Below are positions 2,243 through 50,825 of a DNA stretch of 64,000 bases, in pieces. Where the stretch lies: positions 10,267 to 74,266 of IMG/VR virus record IMGVR_UViG_3300020462_000003, one strand, 5' to 3'. Both the position numbers and the translations under genes were made by a program. The notes under the pieces were generated by a model. It searched no databases. It was not told where the DNA came from and saw nothing but the letters and a program-made list of their open reading frames with translations. Source of the DNA: a virus. Position 1 is the first letter of the stretch. The number at the start of each line of letters is the position of its first letter.

Positions 2243-2887
2243 ATGAAAGCCGATTACATTACCCACATGGGTGACGACCTGTTGGTTGTCAATTCCGCTC
2301 GCGTATCGTTCTCGAAAGAGTCGGACTTCGATATCGACGGAAACCTGGATTCCCGTGATCAAAAGTTGATTACTTACCTTGCTGCTCACGGACACTGGAC
2401 ACCCTTTAGCCATCCACAAATCACCCTGCGTGAAACAGTCCCGATCTTCGTGGCCCGTCAGCGTTTCAAGCACATGGTAGGATTCACTTACAACGAAGTG
2501 TCTCGTCGCTACGTGGATGACACTCCAGCCTTCTATGTGCCTGAAGTCTGGCGTAGCCGTCCTGAAGGCAGCATGAAGCAGGGGAGCGGTGAAGCCCACA
2601 AAGATCAAGGCTTCTACACCAAAGCGTACTCGGAACTCATGGACTCGCTACGCGAGTGCTACGAATCCATGATTAAAGATGGTATTGCGCCGGAACAAGC
2701 CCGCATGGTTTTGCCGCAATCCATGATGACCAGTTATTACGTAACTGGCTCTCTCGCAGCCTGGGCACGCGCGTATAAGCAACGCATGGATGCACACGCT
2801 CAAGTTGAAATTCAGGACCTGGCCAAACAGTGGGGAAATGTACTTGAACCCCTGTTCCCAATTTCATGGAAGGCATTGACTCAGTAA
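2243..2887 (+). CDS. thyX: flavin-dependent thymidylate synthase
   Basis: NSARVSF, HWTPFSH, FVARQRFKH, NEVSRRY, PEQARMVLP motifs. Confidence 0.95.
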   Translation: MKADYITHMGDDLLVVNSARVSFSKESDFDIDGNLDSRDQKLITYLAAHGHWTPFSHPQITLRETVPIFVARQRFKHMVGFTYNEVSRRYVDDTPAFYVPEVWRSRPEGSMKQGSGEAHKDQGFYTKAYSELMDSLRECYESMIKDGIAPEQARMVLPQSMMTSYYVTGSLAAWARAYKQRMDAHAQVEIQDLAKQWGNVLEPLFPISWKALTQ

Positions 2888-2933
2888 CTAGCGTAAGTGT
2901 TCTAATACACTCGCTGTAACTCTCCTCACCTTT

Positions 2934-2978
2934 AAGCCAGTGCCCTGAACTTTTCCTGCAGGGCATTGGCTTCTTTTT
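2934..2978 (+). terminator. intrinsic terminator-like hairpin between thyX and nrdB
   Basis: aagccagtgccctg / cagggcattggctt stem followed by ctttttat. Confidence 0.55.
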
Positions 2979-3000
2979 ATCCGCTCTACGAGGTTCCTAT

Positions 3001-4032
3001 ATGTCTTTGGACATTATTCCGCCTGCGTTGAGCCAAATTGAATCCCCAACCGATTCATACGTGGCTCGCTATCCGTGGGCAGCAGAGTTTGCTGTCGAAC
3101 AACAATCCATCTTCTGGCCTGCTGAAGAGTTGGGTGTTGATGAAGACGAAGATGACTTCCGTACCAAACTTACCGACGGTGAGTTGCACGGTGTTCTTTT
3201 CGCCCAATCAATCCTCACTCAGTACGAGCTGATGATCGGTGGCGAGGAACTATGGGGTGGCAAGATCGCCCGCATGTTCCCACGTCCCGAGATCCAGCGG
3301 ATGTGTGCCTGTTTTGCCCACGTCGAGCTGGGTAGCCATGCACCCTTCTACGACCTGGCAAACAAGGTGCTGGGCCGTGCCACCGACGACTTCTACCGTC
3401 AGTGGAAGAGCGACCCGATCCTGGCTGAGCGCATCGCCTTCATCAGCCAATGTGCTGGTAGTGCCAATCCGTTGGAAGTCACTGCAGCCCTCGCCTTCCT
3501 CGAAGGTGCCGTGCTGTTCAGCGTCTTTGGTTACTTCAAGGGTTTCAATGCCCGTGGCCACAACATGATCCCGCACTTCGTGTCCGGTATCGATGGGAGT
3601 GCCAAGGACGAGAACTTCCACTCGATCGCCTCTGCTCGCCTGTTCAACCAGTGCCGTGCAGAACGCATGGAGCTGGGTAACCACACCCCTGCTCACGACG
3701 AAGCGTTGAACCAGGTCATCGACCGGATGAGCCAGACCGTCTACGAGCATGAGCTGCGGATCATCGACCGTATGTTCGAAGTGCCGGGCAACCGCGTGGT
3801 GGCTCAGGACGAGCTGGTGCATTTCCTCAAGGACCGCATCGACGTGGTGCGTAACCGTCTGGGCCGTCCTGCCCAGTTCGACCTGAAGAAAGGCGAGATC
3901 TCCAACTGGTTCTACCAGCAGCTTTCCACCGTGAAGGTGCCTGACTTCTTCGCAGCAACCCAACTGCAGTACACCCGCAACTGGGCCAAGCACAAACTCA
4001 CCTTCCGTAAGGAGCTGGCTCATGGCGTTTGA
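3001..4032 (+). CDS. nrdB: class I ribonucleotide reductase beta subunit
   Basis: Ferritin-like ligands TQYE, ELGSH...Y, LEG, DENFH; C-terminal DFF....QY. Confidence 0.92.
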   Translation: MSLDIIPPALSQIESPTDSYVARYPWAAEFAVEQQSIFWPAEELGVDEDEDDFRTKLTDGELHGVLFAQSILTQYELMIGGEELWGGKIARMFPRPEIQRMCACFAHVELGSHAPFYDLANKVLGRATDDFYRQWKSDPILAERIAFISQCAGSANPLEVTAALAFLEGAVLFSVFGYFKGFNARGHNMIPHFVSGIDGSAKDENFHSIASARLFNQCRAERMELGNHTPAHDEALNQVIDRMSQTVYEHELRIIDRMFEVPGNRVVAQDELVHFLKDRIDVVRNRLGRPAQFDLKKGEISNWFYQQLSTVKVPDFFAATQLQYTRNWAKHKLTFRKELAHGV

Positions 4033-5749
4033 TCCCACTGGTCTGGATGAACAGACCCTGCAGAAATTCGAACAGCTGAGCGTCGAGCGTAAGCGCCTTC
4101 AGGAGATGGGCCACCTGCCGAGCTGGTACACCACGCAAGGCTGGCAAATGTTCAAGAAGAAGTACGCCGTTCCGGAAGAACTGGCTGTACTAGGCCGCCA
4201 TCGGCGTATTGCCTACACCCTGGCTCGACACATGAAAGGCCGTGAGGTGGAGTGGGAAGAGAAGTTCTTCCACGAGATGTGGGATGGCATCCTCAGCCCC
4301 TCCAGCCCTGCCCTGGCCAACACGGGAACCGATCGAGGCATGATGGTCGCCTGCTCTGGGCAAGTGGTCAGCGACAGCGTAAACGGCTTCTACACCGCCT
4401 TGCGTGAGACTGCGCTGCTGTCCAAGTGGGGCTTTGGCACCAGTGCCGACTTCAGCGGTATCCGGGGTCGGGGCATGCCGATCAGCAAAGGCGGTGAAGC
4501 CAGTGGTGCCGTGGAGGTCATCAATGACTTCTTCACGGCAGCGGGCAAGATCAGCCAGGGGGGTGCTCGCCGGGGTTCCATTGGGGCCTACCTGGATATC
4601 GAGCACAGCGATTGGGATGAGGCCTGCGATTCGCTGGCTGCTGAACCCAACGGGAAGAATTATGGCTGGATCATCCGTGATTCGTTCGTGGACAAGCTCG
4701 ACGCAGGCGACAAGGATGCCAACCGTCGCTGGACCAAGGCGCTCTACACCAAGCTGATCACCGGCAAGGGGTACATCTTCTGCCCTGATAAGGCCAACCG
4801 CCACCGTCCGCAGATGTACAAGGACCGGGGCTTGGATATCAAAGCCACCAACCTGTGCTCGGAGATCATGCTGCACAGCTCCGACGACCTGACCTATAGC
4901 TGCATCCTGGCTTCATTGAACCTGGTGCATTGGGACCGCATCAAGAACAGTGAGTCGGTGTTCATCGCAACGGTGTTCCTGGATTGCCTGTGTCAGGAAT
5001 TCATCGAGAAGAGTGCCGGTATTCCAGGTCTGGAGAAGGTCCGTGCGTTCACGATCAAGGGCCGAGCCATCGGTCTGGGTATCATGGGCTTCCACACCTA
5101 CCTGCAGTCGCAGAACATTCCGTACGTGGGTCTTGAAGCACAGTTCCTCTCCACCGAGATCGCCAAGCACCTGCATGACGAATCCCTTCGGGCAAGCCAG
5201 TGGCTGGCACAGGAGTACGGCGAGCCTGAATGGTGCAAGGGTTACGGTGTCCGCAACACACATCGCACAGCCTACGCACCGACCAAGACCACCAGCCTGC
5301 TGATGGGGGGCGTCAGTGAATCCTGGTTCCCAGACCCTGGCATGGTGTTTGATGCGGGTTCATCTGTGGGCGAGCTTCGCCGGATTCCCCCGGTGTTCTA
5401 CGAGCTGATGAAAGCCCGAGGCGTCTACAGCGAAGAGACCGTACAGGACATCATCGATCACCTCGGTTCTGTTCAGCATGTTGACTGGCTGGGTGACCCT
5501 GAAAAGCTGGTGTATCTCAATGCCTTCGAGATGGACCAGCACATCCTGCTGCGTCACTGCTCTCAACGTCAGAAGTGGACTTGCCAAGGTCAGAGCCTGA
5601 ACTTCTACGTACCGGAAGACGGCAGCGAGGATCTGATTGCTGAGCTGATGACCCTGGTGCTGCTCGACGAGAACATCCTGTCTCAGTACTACATCTACTC
5701 GCGCAGCGGTGTGGTCGTGAAGGATGAATGCGTGGCCTGCTCAGCGTGA
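4022..5749 (+). CDS. nrdA: class I ribonucleotide reductase alpha subunit (short, no ATP cone)
   Basis: SPSSPALAN, SQGGARRG, TNLCSE, APT, QYY, C-terminal CVAC. Confidence 0.95.
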   Translation: MAFDPTGLDEQTLQKFEQLSVERKRLQEMGHLPSWYTTQGWQMFKKKYAVPEELAVLGRHRRIAYTLARHMKGREVEWEEKFFHEMWDGILSPSSPALANTGTDRGMMVACSGQVVSDSVNGFYTALRETALLSKWGFGTSADFSGIRGRGMPISKGGEASGAVEVINDFFTAAGKISQGGARRGSIGAYLDIEHSDWDEACDSLAAEPNGKNYGWIIRDSFVDKLDAGDKDANRRWTKALYTKLITGKGYIFCPDKANRHRPQMYKDRGLDIKATNLCSEIMLHSSDDLTYSCILASLNLVHWDRIKNSESVFIATVFLDCLCQEFIEKSAGIPGLEKVRAFTIKGRAIGLGIMGFHTYLQSQNIPYVGLEAQFLSTEIAKHLHDESLRASQWLAQEYGEPEWCKGYGVRNTHRTAYAPTKTTSLLMGGVSESWFPDPGMVFDAGSSVGELRRIPPVFYELMKARGVYSEETVQDIIDHLGSVQHVDWLGDPEKLVYLNAFEMDQHILLRHCSQRQKWTCQGQSLNFYVPEDGSEDLIAELMTLVLLDENILSQYYIYSRSGVVVKDECVACSA

Positions 5750-5818
5750 CAGACGCCCTCACGGGCGTTCGGTGACGAACCAGTAGAAGAGGTTCAGTTA
5801 TGACTTCAAGGAAGAACA

Positions 5819-5889
5819 GGTCACTGCATCGGAGCGCAGCACAAGGCGAGCCTGCGAGCCGACAGTGCGGAGGCGACGTTGCAGTGACC
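5819..5889 (+). repeat. long bulged hairpin, copy A of an inverted pair
   Basis: Outer stem ggtcactgca/tgcagtgacc; contains CGCAGCACAAGGCG (5835-5848) and CAGTGCGGAGG (5863-5873). Confidence 0.8.
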
Positions 5890-6019
5890 ATTCATCGGTA
5901 GTGGCAGTAAGCCACCCTACAGTTGATCCAGATCAAGCAGATTCAGTGACCCCGTTCACTAGAATGCGCGCCCTCTGCTGTACGGGACTTTGAATAAGTC
6001 CTTTCGCTTGTACAACTTT

Positions 6020-6100
6020 CCAATCCTCGACTCGAACCTCCGCACTGGCGGCGCACTCGCTGCGCTCGACGCCTTGTGCTGCGTTCGCGCCTCGGATTGG
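6020..6100 (-). repeat. long bulged hairpin, copy B of an inverted pair
   Basis: Outer stem ccaatcc/ggattgg; reverse complements of the same two blocks at 6070-6083 and 6037-6047. Confidence 0.8.
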
Positions 6101-6169
6101 TGAGGGTTTTTGTGGGGGATCGAGCCTGTGTCTGGCCTGCCGAAGGCACAGGGGAGATCCCCTTTATAT

Positions 6170-6646
6170 ATGCGTCGTTTTCGAGAGGTCATCTTGGACG
6201 CCTACACCAGCACGTACCCGATCGATGAAATGCCCTTGCTCATGGCTCGCTTAGGCAAGGCAAGAACCGATCGGATTCGCTACAGCTCCAGCTACACACA
6301 CCCCCGTCCACCCTCCCCCCGTAACACGGCCAACCCGTTGCTGAGCTTCATGCAACGCTACAAGGCCTACGACGGCAGTCAGGTGGACGACATTATCTTG
6401 GGCATCGCCAGGCTGGATCACCACAGCAAGGCGGGGAAGCACTCCATACCCCTGAGTGTGACCCGGCTCTACAACATCCTGCAGTGCATGGATGTGATCA
6501 ATACCCAGGAGATCCGCTACATGCTTGGCGTGGATACTCGGCAGGCACAGAAGTACCTGAAGGCTATCAAGTTGTGCCTGTTTCATATTCAAAAGCACAT
6601 CGACAAACAACAATACCAGACCTCGCCAGACGAGCCACTGGAATAA
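6170..6646 (+). CDS. hypothetical protein, possible C-terminal helix-turn-helix
   Basis: ORF with phage-like codon usage; NTQEIRYMLGVDTRQAQKYL resembles an HTH; start uncertain (6170 or 6229). Confidence 0.55.
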   Translation: MRRFREVILDAYTSTYPIDEMPLLMARLGKARTDRIRYSSSYTHPRPPSPRNTANPLLSFMQRYKAYDGSQVDDIILGIARLDHHSKAGKHSIPLSVTRLYNILQCMDVINTQEIRYMLGVDTRQAQKYLKAIKLCLFHIQKHIDKQQYQTSPDEPLE

Positions 6647-6696
6647 ACCAACACTTGAAATAAACTGCATGGACGCAATAACCCCAGGAAGTAACC

Positions 6697-7023
6697 ATGC
6701 ACGACCTGCAGCACTGCAAGAGTATCGGCTGTTCCATGAGTTGGCGCAGCGAAGAACTCAACGACTACTGTCCAAGTTGCCGAGATAAGAACGCTGTTCC
6801 GAACTTCGGTCACTTGCACAGTATCGACAACCATCGTGTGAACCACCTCTTCAAGATCAACCATCCCTGTTTGCAGGAAGCAGTCAGCTACCTACTGGAA
6901 TCAGGTAAGGCTACGGATGAGTGGCAAGAAGAGTTGGTGGACAATGCCTTGAAGGCGTTGAACCGCTGGCAGGAAATGATTCAAGAAGACAAACAAGGAG
7001 CTGCCATCCTGGCAGTCGAATGA
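6697..7023 (+). CDS. hypothetical protein (Cys-rich N-terminus)
   Basis: SD agga upstream; coupled to the next gene. Confidence 0.6.
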   Translation: MHDLQHCKSIGCSMSWRSEELNDYCPSCRDKNAVPNFGHLHSIDNHRVNHLFKINHPCLQEAVSYLLESGKATDEWQEELVDNALKALNRWQEMIQEDKQGAAILAVE

Positions 7024-7238
7024 CCATGCTCAACTTACTGCTTTTGCTGGTTCCTCGGTTTACGACTCGGTATTACATCCACCGTATTTCTCGTGGGAGT
7101 AGTAAGCCTAGTAAGTTGACCTTGCTGTATTGCAACTCTCCGAAGTTTATTCAACCCGGTGACCTGGTTCACAAGGTGAGTTACTTCAACCTCTTTGGTT
7201 TCCCGAAGTTCATCAACGTTACGGTGACCCGCCACTGA
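7020..7238 (+). CDS. hypothetical protein
   Basis: ATGA overlap with the previous stop; MTMLNLLLLL... Confidence 0.45.
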   Translation: MTMLNLLLLLVPRFTTRYYIHRISRGSSKPSKLTLLYCNSPKFIQPGDLVHKVSYFNLFGFPKFINVTVTRH

Positions 7239-7275
7239 GTCTGGTGTGTGGGTCGCCTTCATTGAAGGTAGTCCC

Positions 7276-8250
7276 ATGCGTAAGTACCTCAACAACTCCA
7301 ACGTCCCGTTGTCTCTCGCGGTCTTTTTAGCGACAGACAATTATGATCACGACTCCGCCACCATCAGTGCTACCACACTGATCAAACCCCTTCGCCAGAT
7401 CATCCTGGCCTCCCGTGTGCCTCAGGAGCAGGGACTGGTCGATATCTCCGGCATGGTCAGCTCCCGTATGGGCAGTGCGATCCATGACAGCATCGAGCAG
7501 GCCTGGAAACAGCGTCACGTCGAAGCTATGACTGCACTGGGCTATCCGGACAAGGTGATCGCCAAGGTGCGTATCAACCCTGCACCTGAAGAACTGGGTC
7601 CGGGCGTTATCCCGGTCTACCTGGAGCAACGCGCCTATCGAGAAATCGAAGGCCGTACCGTGTCGGGCAAGTTCGACTTTGTGGGCGATGGCCGCGTGGA
7701 GGATTTCAAGTCCACATCGGTGTACACCTACATCAACAACACCAACGATGAGAAGTACAAACTTCAGGGCGGTATCTATCGCTGGTTGAATCCGAAGATC
7801 ATCACGCAAGACACGATGGCTATTCAGTTCATCTTCACTGACTGGAGTCAGGCCCAGGCCAAGAGTTCTGCGAACTACCCTGCCAGCCGAACACTGGAAC
7901 ATGTGTTGCGTCTGCCCTCTCCGCAATTCATCGAAGAATTTATCCGAAACAAGATTCGTAATCTGGATAAGTTCTGGAATGCACCGGAAAATGAGATCCC
8001 GCTTTGTACTGAAGAAGATCTCTGGCGATCTGCCCCACAGTTCAAGTACTACAAGAACCCTGCAAAGACCCAACGCTCAACCAAGAACTTCGACAACAAG
8101 CAAGATGCTTACTTGCAACTGGCCAATGATGGCAATGTCGGCAAAGTGGTTGAAGTGCAAGGTCAGGTTAAGGCATGCCGGTATTGCCCAGGGTTCTACG
8201 CCTGCACCCAGAAAGATAAATACATCGAATCGGGTGAACTTCAGCTTTAA
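7276..8250 (+). CDS. PD-(D/E)xK exonuclease (N4 gp42-like)
   Basis: ISATTLIKP, GSAIH, SGKFD..EDFKS, CRYC.....C; synteny upstream of primase. Confidence 0.8.
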   Translation: MRKYLNNSNVPLSLAVFLATDNYDHDSATISATTLIKPLRQIILASRVPQEQGLVDISGMVSSRMGSAIHDSIEQAWKQRHVEAMTALGYPDKVIAKVRINPAPEELGPGVIPVYLEQRAYREIEGRTVSGKFDFVGDGRVEDFKSTSVYTYINNTNDEKYKLQGGIYRWLNPKIITQDTMAIQFIFTDWSQAQAKSSANYPASRTLEHVLRLPSPQFIEEFIRNKIRNLDKFWNAPENEIPLCTEEDLWRSAPQFKYYKNPAKTQRSTKNFDNKQDAYLQLANDGNVGKVVEVQGQVKACRYCPGFYACTQKDKYIESGELQL

Positions 8251-8268
8251 CCACAACAGGAGTGCTCC

Positions 8269-10410
8269 ATGCTTCCCGTCAATCAGATGCCGTACCACCC
8301 CACGGCAGAACAACTCGTGCAGATCCTTTGCAACCGTACCCAGAACACGGAGCCGTTATTCTTCCGCGTCCTGGTCGGTTACTACTTCGCCGTAGTGGCC
8401 TCGCAGATGCGCTGCATCATCGGCACACCTGACCGTGGGGATATTCCAGTCAACGTCTATGCGTTGAACCTGTCCCCTTCCGGCACCGGCAAGGGCCACT
8501 CCACCAGCATCATCGAGGACGAGGTGATACATCAGTTCCGCGACCGCTTCCTGGAAGAGACCTTTCCCCTGCTGGCTGATCGTAACCTGCCGGTACTGGC
8601 TAACAAGCGTGCCGTGCGCAAGAACAGCGATCCGGATGAGGAGCTGATCCGTGTGCAGAAGGAATTCGAGCAGCTGGGTTCCCTGCTGTTCAGCTTCGAC
8701 TCTGGTACCAGCCCTGCAGTCAAGCAAATGCGCCACAAGCTGCTGATGGCGGATGCCGGTGCAGTGAACCTGGAGATCGACGAGATCGGTTTGAACCTGG
8801 TGGGCAACACCGAGGTGCTGACTGTGTTCCTTGAGCTATACGACAAGGGCAAGGTCAAGACCAAGCTGGTCAAGTCGACTTCCGACAACTCACGCTTCGA
8901 GGAGATCAAGGGCACCACGCCGACCAACATGATGCTCTTCGGTACACCGTCCAAGCTGTTCGACGGTGCGGCCACTGAGCAGGCTCTGTACTCGATGCTG
9001 GATACCGGCTACGCACGTCGCTGCCTGTTTGGCTATCTCAAAGGTGCCAGCAAGAATCTGGATCTGACTCCGGAGGAGGTCTACGACCTGCAAACCAGCC
9101 AGCAGACCAACCAGTTCCTCGAAGAGCTGGCCGATAAGCTGGAACGCCTGGCCGATATCATCAACGCCAACAAGCGTCTGGTGATGAGCCGGGACACCAG
9201 CCTGGAGCTGATCCAGTACAAGCTGCTGTGTGAGAAGCAGGCCGACGCCATGCCTGAGCACGACGAGATCCGCAAGGCCGAGCTGTCACACCGTTACTTC
9301 AAGGCGCTCAAGCTGGCTGGTGCTTATGCCTTTGTGGACGACTCACCTGAGCTGACCCTGAGCCATCTGCACAACGCTATCCGACTGGTGGAGGACAGTG
9401 GCTTTGCCTTTGGGCAGATGCTCTCGCGTGATCGTCCATACGTGAAGCTAGCCAAGTACCTGGCTTCCATCGGCAAGGAAGTGACTCAGGCTGATCTGGT
9501 TGAAGACCTGCCCTACTACAAGGGGTCTGCTAGCCAGAAGCAGGAGATGCTGACGCTCGCCACGGCCTACGGCTACAAGAACAACATCATCATCAAGAAG
9601 GCGTTCAACGACGGCATCGAGTTCCTGCGTGGCGAAAGCCTCAAGGAAACCGACCTGGACAAGATGGTGGTGAGCTATTCCAGCGATATGACCACCGGCT
9701 ACAACAACGAGACGGCACCGTTCGACAAGCTGCACCTGCTGACTCAGGCCCCAGGCATGCACTGGATCAACCATCACCTCAAGGGTGGTTACCGCAACGA
9801 GGACAACGCTGAACCCGGCTTCAACCTGCTGGTTATCGACGTGGACGGCACCTGCAACCTGAACACAGCCAAGCTGCTGCTCAAGGATTACAAGGCGCTG
9901 TACTACACCACCAAGAGCCACACCGACCAGAACCACCGGTATCGCATCATCCTGCCGACCAACTTCGAGTTGAAGATGGATGCCAAGGACTACAAGGAGT
10001 TCTACAACAACGTCCTGCAGTGGCTGCCATTCGATGCTGATCCCTCTGCTGCCCATCGGTGCAAGAAGTGGCTGACCAAACCCGGTCACTACGAATACAC
10101 CGAAGGCGATGTGTTCGATGTTCTGCCCTTCATTCCGAAGACCAGCAAGAACGAAGAGCGCAAGCAACGATTCGACTCGCAACAGTCGCTAGACAACTTG
10201 GAACGCTGGGTCATCAACAATACCGGCGATGGTAACCGCAACAACATGTTGCTGCGTTACGCCATGATTCTCATGGACGCCAACTTCGACTTCGACGGTA
10301 TCCGCTCTCGCGTGGTGTCGTTGAATGACAAGTTGCCAGACAAGTTGGACGAAGTGGAGATCATGAGTTCCATCATGGTCACGGTCGGCAAAGCACTCTC
10401 CAAGCGGTGA
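8269..10410 (+). CDS. DNA primase/replication protein (N4 gp43-like)
   Basis: Walker A SPSGTGKG; IDVD; YTTKSH...HRYRII; C-terminal GNRNNMLLRYA (PriCT-like). Confidence 0.85.
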   Translation: MLPVNQMPYHPTAEQLVQILCNRTQNTEPLFFRVLVGYYFAVVASQMRCIIGTPDRGDIPVNVYALNLSPSGTGKGHSTSIIEDEVIHQFRDRFLEETFPLLADRNLPVLANKRAVRKNSDPDEELIRVQKEFEQLGSLLFSFDSGTSPAVKQMRHKLLMADAGAVNLEIDEIGLNLVGNTEVLTVFLELYDKGKVKTKLVKSTSDNSRFEEIKGTTPTNMMLFGTPSKLFDGAATEQALYSMLDTGYARRCLFGYLKGASKNLDLTPEEVYDLQTSQQTNQFLEELADKLERLADIINANKRLVMSRDTSLELIQYKLLCEKQADAMPEHDEIRKAELSHRYFKALKLAGAYAFVDDSPELTLSHLHNAIRLVEDSGFAFGQMLSRDRPYVKLAKYLASIGKEVTQADLVEDLPYYKGSASQKQEMLTLATAYGYKNNIIIKKAFNDGIEFLRGESLKETDLDKMVVSYSSDMTTGYNNETAPFDKLHLLTQAPGMHWINHHLKGGYRNEDNAEPGFNLLVIDVDGTCNLNTAKLLLKDYKALYYTTKSHTDQNHRYRIILPTNFELKMDAKDYKEFYNNVLQWLPFDADPSAAHRCKKWLTKPGHYEYTEGDVFDVLPFIPKTSKNEERKQRFDSQQSLDNLERWVINNTGDGNRNNMLLRYAMILMDANFDFDGIRSRVVSLNDKLPDKLDEVEIMSSIMVTVGKALSKR

Positions 10411-10523
10411 GTGTGTCCACCTACCCCAAGTTCTCTTGGGGTTCCTTTTCTTATTCAGAAGCCCGGCTAAGTCATGACGACTACATGGACTCACTCGGCT
10501 TCTGTTTATCGGAGATAGCAAAC

Positions 10524-11015
10524 ATGGGTTGCGATATTCATTGGCACTCGGAAACCAAGAAAGATGGCGTCTGGGTGTGTGACCAAGCTGCAAGTTTCAA
10601 GATCAATCCACCTGAGTACGACGGTCAAGGGGAATATCCTGAAATGGATAAATTGCCGGGCCGTACTCGTGACTACTGGTTCTTCGGCCTGCTGAACAAC
10701 GGTGTCCGCACCAACTGGCCGTGGTCGTTCCCGTACACCTGTGACATTCCGTACGACACGTCCAGTGAAGTGAGGGCCATCGTTCAACACTGGGACGAGG
10801 ACGGCCACTCCCAAGGAGTCCGCACCCAGGCCGAACTGATCGCCAAGCTCGAAGAACTGAATCTCGCCCGTGCCCAGCTGCTGATCGCCCCCAGCGAAGA
10901 TGCCTCGATCCACAACGTCGACCACCTGATCGCGCGACTGGAAGAAACCCTGGCCACCCTCGGTGCCACGGACACTCCGGACGATCGCCGCATCGTGTTC
11001 TGGTTCGGCAACTGA
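10524..11015 (+). CDS. conserved phage hypothetical protein
   Basis: MGCDIH...RDYWFFG...GHS...RIVFWF pattern; SD ggaga before ATG 10524 (in-frame GTG at 10407 less likely). Confidence 0.65.
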   Translation: MGCDIHWHSETKKDGVWVCDQAASFKINPPEYDGQGEYPEMDKLPGRTRDYWFFGLLNNGVRTNWPWSFPYTCDIPYDTSSEVRAIVQHWDEDGHSQGVRTQAELIAKLEELNLARAQLLIAPSEDASIHNVDHLIARLEETLATLGATDTPDDRRIVFWFGN

Positions 11016-11065
11016 CCTTCAGGTGCCCTCCGGGCACTTGGCGAATTCCCACCAAGGAGTCTGAA

Positions 11066-11791
11066 ATGACCCAAGTAAACGACCACCTGATCCTGTTGTG
11101 TGGCAAATCGGCGACCGGCAAATCCGCTTCGCTGATGGGCCTGCGAGATCCGGAAGGCGTGATGTACCTGAACTGTGAAGCCGGCAAGAAACTACCGTTC
11201 CGCGCCAAGTTCCGTCAGTACACCATCACCGATCCGCATCAGATCTTCGAAGCCTTCCAAGTGGCCGAGAACGATCCGACCAACCACACCATCGTGGTGG
11301 ACTCGCTGACCTATCTGCTGGATATGTACGAGTCGCTGTTCGTGCTGAACTCAGCCAACTCCATGAAGGCCTGGGGCGACTTTGCCCAGTACTTCAAGCA
11401 GCTCATGCAACAGCATGTAGCCAAGTCCACCAAAAACGTGATCTTCATTGCTCACACCCGCGACACTGTGAACGAATCAGAGATGATTCTGGAAACATGT
11501 GTGCCGGTGAAGGGTGCATTGAAGAACAACGGTATCGAAAGCTACTTCACAGTAGTAATCGCATCGAAGAAAGTTCCACTCAAGAACTTGAAGGACTATT
11601 CTTCGCCGCTGTTGAACATCACTCCGGAAGAAGAGGCACTTGGTTTCAAGTACGTCTTCCAGTGCAAGCTGACCAAAGACACTGTAGGCGAACGCCTGCG
11701 TGGTCCACTTGGTTTGTTCGACACGTCCGAGACGTTCACCGACAACAACCTGCAGGGGATCATCGATCGCCTGCGCAGTTACTACGACTGA
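11066..11791 (+). CDS. AAA/Sak4-like ATPase (N4 gp44-like)
   Basis: GKSATGKS Walker A; IVVDSLT Walker B; IFIAH. Confidence 0.85.
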   Translation: MTQVNDHLILLCGKSATGKSASLMGLRDPEGVMYLNCEAGKKLPFRAKFRQYTITDPHQIFEAFQVAENDPTNHTIVVDSLTYLLDMYESLFVLNSANSMKAWGDFAQYFKQLMQQHVAKSTKNVIFIAHTRDTVNESEMILETCVPVKGALKNNGIESYFTVVIASKKVPLKNLKDYSSPLLNITPEEEALGFKYVFQCKLTKDTVGERLRGPLGLFDTSETFTDNNLQGIIDRLRSYYD

Positions 11792-33921: not shown

Positions 33922-36066
33922 CTAGTTAGTTGTCGGCTTCTTCTGCTGAGCTTTCATGTGGTTATCCACCACTTTCAACTGCATCTGTGCCCTGGCTTGT
34001 GCGCCCTGTTTCTGCAAGTCACGTTCCTGTTTCACCCCAGACTCTTGTTCAACGAAGTCCAGGTTCTTCAGGTCAGCATCACTTTGAAGATGGGTGGCTT
34101 TAGCCCCTTCAGTTCCAACTTTGGCACCGGAGAGTTCTGCGTCAGCCTGCAACTTCATAGCCTTCGCCTGAAGTTCCATGACTTCCGCTTCCAACTTAGC
34201 CAGTTCCAGTTCCTGCATACGCTGAGCAATTGGATCAGGCTCAGGCTGGTACTCCTCGATCTGCTTGGCCAGATCAGGCATCTTCCGCAGGCGAGCAATG
34301 TCGGCCAGGATCATGCGACTCATCGCAGGGTCCATGTTGTTGCCCATGGTCTGCAGCATGAAGGCCAGTTCCTGTGCCTTGGCGTTGTCGTCTTCAGCCG
34401 TGGTGATGTTCAGACGCAGGTCGAAGTTACCGGCCAGGTCATCACGGCGAATCTCCACGAAGTCTTCTTCGGTGATCCGCACCACTTCCTGCTCCGAGAG
34501 CCATACCGCATTCATTGAGATGAACTTGCGGGCCACCTTGACCATGCCTGCAGCCAGGCGACGAAGGATGGCCAGCTCACGCTTGGATGCAGCGTCCAAT
34601 GCACCCCGGATACCAGCAGCCACTTCACCCAGAGAAGATCCAGAGATCCCTTGGTTGAATGCCTTCACACCGGTCAGTGATTCAGCCTCGAAGTTCTGCA
34701 GCTGCAGCATGAACTGAGCACTGGCGGGGATCTCCGGGAAGGTGTGCATGAACACGCCCTGGCGAGGATCGACGTTGGCATTGAACTCGTAGTCCTGGCC
34801 CTTCTCGTACTTGCGGCGGTTGGTTACATCGAGCATGTCTTTGCGCATGCCGGTCTGACCATTAGCACCCTTACCGAGAATGTCGATCATGCCGCGAGTC
34901 ACAGCACCGATGATCTTCTGGTTGTCTTCCAGCAGTGAACCATCTGGCTCACCGTAGATGCTCTTGCGCACCGGCAAGTAAGGGACCACAACGAAGGGAA
35001 GTTTCTGATCCGGGAAGGGGTTCTCTTCCATGCGGATAAGGGTGTCGCCTACCCAAGCCACCACAATAGGCCGCACAATCCCAGTACCATCAATATCCCA
35101 AAATCCCCAATATTCATAAACAACAAACTTCTTACGGGGTTCGTCACTGAAGTTGAAATTCTTTGAATACTCGTTGGCCGTTGCATGGTCAGGTTCCCCC
35201 AAGATGGAATTTGAGGTGATATTGATCTGGTCCAGGTTCTTGTACCGATCCCCCTCCTTCTTCAACTGAGCCAGTGAAGATTCAAAGGAGTAGATAACAA
35301 AGCTGGCCTTGTCGATATCGCCCTGACACGTAGGGTCGATCATGACATTGCGGTAGTCGCAGACTTCCACAGTCGGATGGTTCTTGATCACCCGAGTCTT
35401 CTTGACTGGCTTGTGCCCCTTGACCACGGCTTCAACAGGTCGGCCATGTTGTTGGTACAACTGATGCGCCTGCTTAATCTCCGGTTCAACTTCCTGCTCG
35501 TATTGTTCAGGACTTTGCTGAACCATCTGATCCAGGTGCTGCATCATCGGAGCAGCTTCATCGCTGAAGACGTACTCCACATCAGGAACGATGGCGGTGT
35601 ACTCCTCTTCTTCAAAGCTCCAGCCGGTACGGAGTATAACGGTGCCTTCGTCCACTGCTGTTCGCACGAACTCGTCAATGAACGTCACCTTATCGATGCG
35701 CGTATTGAACTGGTTGTTCAGAATCAACTGGTTCTGTTGAGCCGCTTTCTTATCTTCCCAACTGACCGGACGCACACTGAATACATCGTCGGTACTGAGG
35801 AAAGGTTCGCTGAGTGCGGGATACCGCCACTCGGCTTGTTTACGAATGAGCTTGGGTACGATCTTGGAAGAACCTTCCGGCGTCTTGACCTGAGCCTTGC
35901 CGGTAACGTTCAAGTTATCCAGCCATTCACTGATCTGAGAAGTCTTGCTGTCGTGGTAGCTCTTGGCTTCCTGATAGTCCTGCTTCAAATCAAGGATAGA
36001 AGGTTCTTTGGCCCACTTTGTGAGCTTCTTAACTGCGGCAGTTGCTGCCACCAAATTGTCGGCCAT
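33922..36066 (-). CDS. portal protein (N4 gp59-like)
   Basis: KLTKWAKEPS, PKLIRKQAEWRY, YEYWG, EAESLTGVKAF; ~715 aa. Confidence 0.92.
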   Translation of the reverse strand: MADNLVAATAAVKKLTKWAKEPSILDLKQDYQEAKSYHDSKTSQISEWLDNLNVTGKAQVKTPEGSSKIVPKLIRKQAEWRYPALSEPFLSTDDVFSVRPVSWEDKKAAQQNQLILNNQFNTRIDKVTFIDEFVRTAVDEGTVILRTGWSFEEEEYTAIVPDVEYVFSDEAAPMMQHLDQMVQQSPEQYEQEVEPEIKQAHQLYQQHGRPVEAVVKGHKPVKKTRVIKNHPTVEVCDYRNVMIDPTCQGDIDKASFVIYSFESSLAQLKKEGDRYKNLDQINITSNSILGEPDHATANEYSKNFNFSDEPRKKFVVYEYWGFWDIDGTGIVRPIVVAWVGDTLIRMEENPFPDQKLPFVVVPYLPVRKSIYGEPDGSLLEDNQKIIGAVTRGMIDILGKGANGQTGMRKDMLDVTNRRKYEKGQDYEFNANVDPRQGVFMHTFPEIPASAQFMLQLQNFEAESLTGVKAFNQGISGSSLGEVAAGIRGALDAASKRELAILRRLAAGMVKVARKFISMNAVWLSEQEVVRITEEDFVEIRRDDLAGNFDLRLNITTAEDDNAKAQELAFMLQTMGNNMDPAMSRMILADIARLRKMPDLAKQIEEYQPEPDPIAQRMQELELAKLEAEVMELQAKAMKLQADAELSGAKVGTEGAKATHLQSDADLKNLDFVEQESGVKQERDLQKQGAQARAQMQLKVVDNHMKAQQKKPTTN

Positions 36067-40468: not shown

Positions 40469-40708
40469 GAAGGAACCCCTATTCACCATATAGGGTGAAC
40501 ATAGTATGGAGTTGGGACTTAAAGACAAAATCGGAGTGAGTGGAAGTGTACGGAAGGAAAGGTATTTAGCGAAATTGGGTCCTCGGGTTTTGGGAATTTT
40601 TATAATTTGGGTACTGACCTAGTACTTACAGTTTCTTACCTCAAAAACTAAACCACCCCCCCCCATTACTCCGTACACGTATTCACCACCTACCTACCCA
40701 CTACCACC

Positions 40709-40728
40709 AGGCTTCGCCTAAGTATGGA
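40709..40728 (+). promoter_or_regulatory. vRNAP hairpin early promoter 1
   Basis: aggc-TTC-gcct aagtat GGA. Confidence 0.7.
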
Positions 40729-40763
40729 TCAATCTCGATCCTTCCCTGATCAGGAGCTACACC

Positions 40764-41024: not shown

Positions 41025-41095
41025 AAAGCACACACCTTTAAAGCACACAAAGAGCACACACCTTAGACAGTGTTATCAGAGATACAGTAGATCAC

Positions 41096-41116
41096 CGGGC
41101 TTCGCCCGAGAGTGGA
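41096..41116 (+). promoter_or_regulatory. vRNAP hairpin early promoter 2
   Basis: cgggc-TTC-gcccg agagt GGA. Confidence 0.75.
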
Positions 41117-41155
41117 ATGAGAGCAGTCAGCTCTCTCAACTCTTTGAGGTGATGT

Positions 41156-42106: not shown

Positions 42107-42142
42107 GTCAGCTTCACCTCTTTAAGCGTTCCCATCGTCCAC

Positions 42143-42163
42143 CCGGCTTCGCCGGAGAATGGA
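42143..42163 (+). promoter_or_regulatory. vRNAP hairpin early promoter 4
   Basis: ccggc-TTC-gccgg agaat GGA. Confidence 0.75.
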
Positions 42164-42205
42164 TAGAGCAGCCTGCTCAACACTACCCATGCAAGGAGAT
42201 TCACC

Positions 42206-42497: not shown

Positions 42498-42532
42498 AGG
42501 CCTGCTTCCCTCAAGGGGGAGTGGGCCTTTTT
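42498..42532 (+). terminator. intrinsic terminator
   Basis: aggcctgcttccc tcaa gggggagtgggcct tttt. Confidence 0.75.
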
Positions 42533-42554
42533 ATTATGCGTCGTTTTCGTCAGA

Positions 42555-42574
42555 CAGCTTCGCTGGAGGATGGA
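42555..42574 (+). promoter_or_regulatory. vRNAP hairpin early promoter 5
   Basis: cagc-TTC-gctg gaggat GGA. Confidence 0.7.
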
Positions 42575-42675
42575 ATCACCTACCTGTGTCGCTGACAGTG
42601 GACTCCCTTCGGGGAAGCACAGGCGATTATCCAGAGCCGTGTTGCACGGGCTTTTTACCCATCAAGGAGTGAACC

Positions 42676-46297: not shown

Positions 46298-46340
46298 GTT
46301 GAACAGGTGCGCTCCGCGCACTCGATGAAGCAACTCCTCT

Positions 46341-50648: not shown

Positions 50649-50825
50649 ATGCTCGTATTAACCCGCAAGGCAGGTCAGGCAATTCACATCGGCGACAACA
50701 TTGTTGTTCGTATTCTGGGTTATCAGAACGGTCACTTCCGCGTGGGCATTGAAGCCCCCAAGGACATTGATATTCAACGGGACGATATGAAGAATCCAAA
50801 AAAGCCGGAAGTTGTCAGTGAATAG
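50649..50825 (+). CDS. csrA: CsrA/RsmA-family translational regulator
   Basis: Own translation MLVLTRKAGQAIHIGDNIVVRILGYQNGHFRVGIEAPKDIDIQRDDMKNPKKPEVVSE; Arg44 conserved. Confidence 0.9.
   Translation: MLVLTRKAGQAIHIGDNIVVRILGYQNGHFRVGIEAPKDIDIQRDDMKNPKKPEVVSE

Follow-up and report, generated by a model that had tools for sequence, protein, structure and literature searches.

Opposite-strand hairpins upstream of the replication genes of N4-like phages form a conserved family of candidate single-strand DNA initiation signals

Introduction

Several described phage and plasmid signals are read from DNA hairpins. The promoters of the N4 virion RNA polymerase (vRNAP) and the hairpin promoters of the related phage LUZ7 are DNA hairpins of one strand, with a GCGNAGC tip closed by a G-N-A triloop. 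GCGNAGC is the "mini-hairpin DNA" heptamer, which is extraordinarily stable as DNA and occurs at N4 vRNAP promoters as GCGGAGC; related mini-hairpins are GCGAAAGC of the G4 oric and CCGAAGG of RSF1010 ssiA (PMC13037366). Hairpins displayed on one strand only have a known mechanism, since N4 SSB melts the non-template hairpin and spares the template-strand hairpin, which is SSB-resistant (PMC4496689). In the IncQ plasmid RSF1010, the signals for the RepB' primase, ssiA and ssiB, are two similar hairpins, one on each complementary strand, and an IncQ ssi spans 40 nt, with nt 7-27 forming a hairpin and a 5' hexamer that is conserved (PMC8567376). The complementary-strand origins of the G4 and phiX174 type and the Frpo promoters of the F plasmid are long, imperfect hairpins of DNA, resistant to SSB, to which a primase or RNA polymerase is recruited, and G4 hairpin I has the GCGAAAGC sequence. 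To our knowledge, PriA primosome sites (phiX174 n' type) have no sequence consensus. Elements of the REP, ERIC and MITE kinds are rod-like imperfect intergenic palindromes that occur in either orientation.

Guinta and colleagues are said to have found in 1986 that N4 DNA replication needs vRNAP. Our literature search returned no description of any replication origin of an N4-like phage, nor of the hairpins reported here, which apparently form a family undescribed so far. We analyzed a 64,000-nt stretch of DNA (the window; bases 10267-74266 of a 74,266-bp virus record) in which an original prediction had placed two long, rod-like hairpins ("rods") on opposite strands of one intergenic gap and had proposed them as an IncQ-like priming or origin element or, alternatively, as structured RNAs that bind the phage CsrA.

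Results

Judged by its genes, the window's virus is an N4-like podovirus: it has an ORF for a 3582-aa virion RNA polymerase and PHROG matches to a gp43-like primase, an exonuclease and a Sak4-like protein (G+C content, ∼54%). The rods occupy the 440-nt gap from nrdA (4022-5749) to gpX (6194-6646), both on the + strand. gpX encodes a conserved HTH-like protein (phrog_3360) and is always the next gene after the rod pair. We set its start at TTG 6194, where the gene calls of relatives begin, and did not use the upstream ATG 6170, which falls within a conserved non-coding motif. Downstream of gpX lies a replication block (7246-11791, + strand) with the exonuclease (7246-8250), the gp43-like primase (8269-10410), an ORF of no assigned function and the Sak4-like annealing protein (11066-11791), the three named products being assigned by PHROG match. 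The gp43-like primase had no sequence match in Pfam, NCBIfam or PDB. A CsrA-family gene is present in the middle-gene region (50649-50786, + strand; PF02599, 66.8 bits). Four + strand copies of a short hairpin motif, CNGGC-TTC-GCCNG (40705-40733, 41093-41121, 42140-42168 and 42551-42579), look by sequence like N4-type early promoters, with GCGAAGC on the template strand. They probably place the left genome end near 40,600, and given that end the rod locus stands ∼53% along the genome. A fifth candidate early-type promoter, GTGC-GCGGAGC-GCAC, follows the RNAP II genes at 46311 (- strand). Contigs from two RNA-library runs split into several short variants at the gpX 3' end (6593-6645), a sign of microdiversity in the population sampled.

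Each of the two regions folds into one rod hairpin, with a common architecture, and the exact blocks that they were predicted to share on opposite strands were located as claimed, CGCAGCACAAGGCG at 5835-5848 (+) and 6070-6083 (-) and CAGTGCGGAGG at 5863-5873 (+) and 6037-6047 (-). The folding energy is -37.8 kcal/mol (z -3.9) for rod A (5819-5889, + strand) and -44.1 kcal/mol (z -4.9) for rod B (6020-6100, - strand). Among 90-nt folds of the 64-kb window, rod B ranks third in stability and rod A about 28th. The most stable such fold, hairpin D (6305-6390, - strand, -47.5 kcal/mol), lies inside the gpX coding region and was rejected as a conserved element, as its outer stem is not kept in the relatives L023, L004 or L006. 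Rod A consists of an outer stem, a GCA/GGAG internal loop, helix H1 (GCAC/GTGC), an AA bulge, a GGC/GCC helix, a GACA bulge, and a tip, GCGAGC-CT-GCGAGC, that in the window's cluster of close relatives is degenerate and without the GCGNAGC heptamer. Rod B repeats the core of rod A on the - strand, and its tip GAGCGCAGCGAG includes the heptamer GCGCAGC (+ strand 6059-6065). The outer stems differ between the two as predicted, GGTCACTGCA/TGCAGTGACC in rod A and CCAATCC/GGATTGG in rod B. Each rod has one or two GGA motifs, at internal-loop or post-helix positions and none in a hairpin loop. The genome holds two rods only, and the motif recurs nowhere else in it.

Other features share the gap. Directly after the ribonucleotide reductase stop codon, a small + strand hairpin (5752-5771; ACGCCC/GGGCGT stem, variable loop) forms the left edge of the conserved non-coding block and is kept even in L004. 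A spacer (5890-6019) separates the rods. Right of rod B, a + strand T5 run (6106-6110) begins two bases past the extended + strand form of that rod, and it is followed on the + strand by hairpin C, an A+T-rich TTTATATA and the 15-mer TATGCGTCGTTTTCG (6115-6183). The 15-mer occurs exactly at two sites, 6163-6183 and 42529-42549, each time after a hairpin plus a T/A-run: one copy precedes gpX and the other, in the early region, comes shortly before the fourth early promoter. More distant relatives also keep variants of it (TATGCGACGTTTT in L048 and L050) ahead of gpX, and its frame does not match that of gpX in L007, which makes it a non-coding signal. An Rfam search of 5000-7000 in evalue mode returned nothing relevant, a tRNA scan returned none, and blastn of the rod gap against a phage collection gave no match. 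No sigma-70-like promoter was found in 5000-7500, and no iterons or DnaA boxes were seen. We rejected a small ORF over rod A (ATG 5801, 33 codons) as non-coding because all L004 substitutions in it are non-synonymous.

We compared the locus across the close cluster, five to six relatives from IMG/VR and metagenomes (L003/L033, L023, L004, L006 and L032). The rods are ∼90-95% identical and the 130-nt spacer is almost unalignable, with the core-to-core distance fixed at 167-172 nt. The four short inverted repeats predicted in the spacer are present in the window, but relatives keep only the palindrome TTGATCCAGATCAA (5923-5936). The view that structure rather than sequence is conserved held up in this cluster: alignment cells pair in 93.8% of cases with both-side changes at 7 pairs, and the covariation score was 0.363 versus 0.193 in shuffles (reached by 0 of 500) and ≤0.07 with slid partners. 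The substitutions in rod A comprise two compensatory Watson-Crick changes, three independent changes that create G.T pairs on the + strand, and one C.A. A long-range A:B duplex of the RNase III type was rejected, as rod A varies in L004 and L032 with no corresponding change in rod B, and each outer stem pairs within its own rod. An invertible promoter (inverton) or other inversion switch was rejected as well, the spacers of six relatives aligning in direct orientation only. Contigs from four RNA-library runs, which are silent on expression, cover the ∼73-kb genome whole in single contigs with flat depth and no inversion joints.

The nucleotide-metabolism cassettes next to the rods differ between genomes with 96-97% primase identity (window 2243-5749 versus L004:28-2984). 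The window has thymidylate synthase and a class Ia nrdB/nrdA pair, and L004 has ThyX and a class II-like reductase; L032 loses homology at the same point as L004. With relatives that carry other reductase cassettes, homology resumes exactly at the reductase stop codon, and thus the rod block travels with the replication module.

Further N4-like genomes were reached via gpX homologues, and the gaps upstream of gpX were scanned. The covariance model built from the close cluster alone matches the position and strand of rod B in L048 (E 0.003) and L050 (E 0.02), and, in the cultured Litunavirus Pa2, also that of rod A (E 0.011). Conservation in relatives, for which the original prediction had proposed a covariance model as the check, thus extends to the cultured Pseudomonas phages LUZ7 and Pa2. 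Rod A (+) followed by rod B (-) upstream of gpX is found in ∼16 genomes (the window cluster, L046/L007, L047, L048, L050, L051, L058-L061, Pa2 and LUZ7), in a near-universal layout of + strand rod, - strand rod, third hairpin with A+T-rich tail, and gpX. On the sense strand, the common plan runs through outer stems, helix H1, an AA bulge, a G-rich helix H2, the tip A-GCGN(N)AGC-G, H2', a bulge ending in CA (NCA) and H1', with GGA following in most rods. H1 takes nine sequences, each perfectly partnered (GCAC, GCACC, GGAC, GTGC, AGGGC, GGGGC, ACCCC, GTGTC and GTGCC); this family-wide covariation rests on an anchored table, as a MAFFT alignment of the wide family put H1 out of register. Most members have the heptamer GCGAAGC, GCGTAGC or GCGCAGC. 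The 12-mer GAGCGCAGCGAG also forms the tips of rod B in L051 and L061 and of both Pa2 rods, and rod B appears to be the ancestral, widely conserved copy; the tips of rod A in LUZ7 and L061 are GAGCGCAGCGAA and GAGCGCAGCGAC, respectively. Taken together, these data establish the rods as a real, conserved family.

A gpX-like gene is present in 294 phage records, of which 290 are Pseudomonas phages, and the window's marine phage may have a pseudomonad or a relative as host. These records include unrelated myoviruses (PAK_P3 and PaP1 groups), where the gene lies beside a helicase or DprA-like gene.

The rods do not extend to all related loci. Scans with the covariance model and the tip motif found none in N4's own replication region, and thus they are not a general Schitoviridae origin; the gpX-like loci of PAK_P3 and PaP1 are without them too. 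Around the site, L049 and L050 are almost the same, but an 89-nt indel leaves L049 without rod B, which is thus dispensable at least in that genome. The indel (L049:2370-2390 versus L050:2285-2385) takes rod B plus a small neighboring hairpin and shows no evident target-site duplication.

This presence/absence polymorphism is what would be expected of selfish or neutral palindromic DNA that does nothing for the phage, be it a hairpin element that duplicates or a hot spot for recombination where two modules meet. The cluster's rod A resembles an inverted, partly decayed copy of B, and the site is the junction at which reductase cassettes are swapped, which would also fit. We nevertheless regard this explanation as very unlikely. 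The rods keep their position, order and orientation even between genomes so divergent that gpX identity falls to about 35-45%, and unpaired bases are conserved along with the helices; the conservation is in the interior of the rods, whereas MITEs conserve their termini. No target-site duplications were seen, and the phage has just two copies. The pattern GCAGCACAAGGCG-N8-30-GTGCGGAGG gave only two chance matches, in Microbacterium, over 185,579 bacterial species genomes; with the outer stems differing between copies, an origin as a host REP or MITE was rejected. Over metagenomes, the same pattern returned close relatives and chance matches in coding regions only (L034/L035, within a 550-aa ORF).

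We then turned to LUZ7, for which transcription has been mapped at the homologous locus. For its orf59/orf60 gap, the ONT-cappable-seq tables have three entries only: a - strand late promoter, PL8, with its TSS at 34978; a + strand middle promoter, PM2, whose TSS at 35273 was also confirmed by primer extension; and T37, a weak terminator at 35304 (bioRxiv 10.1101/2022.03.18.484859). The GCCCCC-TCC-GGGGGC hairpin of PM2 falls inside the third hairpin, and the LUZ7 homologue of the window's hairpin C with its tail contains both PM2 and T37. The published tables, from a single study, contain no TSS or TTS at the LUZ7 rods (35014-35205), and because nothing starts or ends there, the rods sit between divergent promoters and outside both primary transcripts. 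This absence of RNA ends, again in one study, weakens readings of the rods as RNAs, terminators or mRNA promoters. Read-through transcription has been reported on both LUZ7 strands (PMC9163698), and such RNA may cross the rods. The LUZ7 sRNA cluster (orf69/orf70) was rejected as the rod counterpart, as it is a separate locus.

The position of the LUZ7 rods between late PL8 and middle PM2 would suit DNA-level transcriptional elements, that is, extruded hairpins or cruciforms that bind gpX, an ssDNA-binding cofactor of the Drc/gp2 type or a phage RNA polymerase, and that switch or insulate the neighboring middle (gpX operon) and late (tail-fibre) promoters. The early and middle promoters of LUZ7 are themselves hairpins with 3-nt loops (PMC9163698), the tip heptamer is identical to that of early promoters, and the gene always next after the rods encodes an HTH-like protein. 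We consider this explanation unlikely, as no TSS maps to the LUZ7 rods and their tips are flanked by A.G mismatches and internal loops instead of the 5-7 bp stem of known promoters. Moreover, in the window a 3.6-kb thy-nrd cassette stands between the tail-fibre gene and rod A, so control of a divergent late promoter is not the conserved role, and a fold search with gpX gave no significant match.

The motif-bearing strand is the better folder in 28 of 32 rods, with RNA and DNA parameters alike. Together with the G.T-creating substitutions, this bias indicates that rod A is selected on the + strand and rod B on the - strand. A G.U-tolerant bias of this kind suits RNA as well as DNA, and an RNA role would have rod A act in + strand transcripts, as part of the reductase mRNA 3' UTR, and rod B in - strand antisense RNA, as stabilizers, processing sites, terminators or CsrA-binding hairpins. 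The T5 run gives rod B a terminator-like appearance on the + strand, a U-rich tail follows rod A on the - strand, and the reported read-through could supply transcripts of both strands. The U-run-bearing form is, however, the less stable, non-motif strand, no TTS lies at the LUZ7 rods, and rod B would need - strand transcription amid + strand genes, in a region where we found no sigma-70-like promoter. As for CsrA, the original prediction was right that the phage has a homologue, and GGA follows H1' in most rods, but these motifs are few: with one or two per rod, none of them in a hairpin loop, and no Rfam match, the rods do not conform to an sRNA of the CsrB/RsmZ type, which weakens the CsrA alternative. 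The special stability of the tip motif, moreover, belongs to DNA. We judge an RNA role quite unlikely. The fixed orientation, the 28/32 strand bias, the DNA mini-hairpin tips and the absence of LUZ7 RNA ends at the rods support a single-stranded DNA reading, and the rods look more like elements that act as DNA than as RNA. Against this reading, the GCGNAGC heptamer is not enriched genome-wide (38 observed versus about 51 expected).

Discussion

We tentatively favor the reading that the rods are paired single-strand DNA initiation or origin signals with a role at the DNA level, which we hold to be a real possibility though short of an even chance. It builds on their structure, covariation, strand bias, conserved arrangement and tip motif and on the lack of mapped LUZ7 RNA ends. 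As long imperfect palindromes, the rods could extrude, or fold as the duplex opens, and in LUZ7 negative supercoiling from the flanking divergent promoters could drive extrusion; in the window, the genes on either side of the rods both point along the + strand. Each would then present a stable hairpin on one strand, A on the + strand and B on the - strand, displaying the GNA-type mini-hairpin tip GCGN(N)AGC and the conserved unpaired AA bulge, NCA bulge and GGA. The principle would be that of N4 early promoters, in which SSB melts the complementary hairpin and the template-strand hairpin is left for the enzyme. Copying of the hairpin-bearing strands would proceed leftward from A and rightward from B, which makes the pair, geometrically, a divergent start site before the replication genes. 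The enzyme acting at such a replication origin or priming site would be vRNAP, RNAP II or the gp43-like primase, and the neighboring HTH-like gpX perhaps organizes the rod pair.

A bolder version, which we find more doubtful, would make the two rods the origin from which gpX-bearing N4-like phages (Migulavirinae and marine relatives) replicate: extrusion driven by supercoiling would expose on either strand one SSB-resistant hairpin capped by a mini-hairpin, and vRNAP or the gp43-like primase would start divergent leading strands from them. Against an origin, GC skew stays negative from one end of the genome to the other and shows no inflection at the rods, L049 is without rod B, and rod A of the window cluster is without the heptamer. 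The GC skew of the + strand is negative in rightward and leftward transcription blocks alike and AT skew follows gene direction, which suggests that the genome-wide strand asymmetry is not set by transcription. Were the origin reading true, it would explain the old observation that N4-type replication requires the virion RNA polymerase, and the role of hairpin-reading polymerases beyond early transcription is at stake. If the rods are regulatory instead, a virus family already known for hairpin promoters would gain a second class of structured-DNA signal. The rods occur in cultured, genetically tractable Pseudomonas aeruginosa phages (LUZ7, Litunavirus), and the origin question is directly testable there.

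Among known systems, the hairpin promoters of N4 and LUZ7 come from the same virus family and share with the rods the one-strand DNA hairpin and the GCGNAGC tip with its G-N-A triloop. As in N4 promoters, the rod tips have G at the positions that match -10 and -8, and the hairpin of the complementary strand is weaker. The rods differ in being 75-100 nt long and interrupted by bulges and internal loops, where the promoters have a stem of 5-7 bp; they often have a pyrimidine at the center of the loop, and A.G instead of Watson-Crick pairs next to the tip, and they stand mid-genome as an opposite-strand pair. In the window, rod B has the promoter heptamer with its G-N-A loop (GCGCAGC) and rod A has neither. 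The flanking stem of 5-7 bp and the central purine are absent from rod B, whose heptamer has C at its center and 0 extra base pairs beside it, versus 4 in the early promoters. A transcription start 11-15 nt downstream of the hairpin center, as in N4, is found at none of the LUZ7 rods in the published tables.

The original prediction had likened the pair to IncQ ssi sites. The likeness stands in that similar hairpins with two shared blocks occupy complementary strands, as ssiA and ssiB do; the ssiA mini-hairpin CCGAAGG resembles the rod tips, and both pairs give divergent leading-strand geometry (PMC8567376). It fails in length (75-100 versus 40 nt), architecture and sequence, and neither RepB'/RepC/RepA genes nor iterons were seen in the phage. 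Among 72,556 plasmids, blastn returned chance-level matches only (E 0.9 or worse, in coding regions), a search in which a 12-mer is too short to reach significance, and homology to ColE1 or IncQ found no support. A link to PriA would rest on the tip 12-mer, which the original prediction had matched to the ColE1/pBR322 primosome-assembly region.

The G4- and phiX174-type origins and Frpo promoters share with the rods the long imperfect DNA hairpin, but belong to naturally single-stranded genomes or transfer strands, whereas the rods lie in a double-stranded DNA genome and would need extrusion or exposure. REP, ERIC and MITE-like elements share the rod-like intergenic palindrome, but the rods are not repetitive: they number two, keep to a single locus with an invariable order and orientation, and are absent from bacterial genomes.
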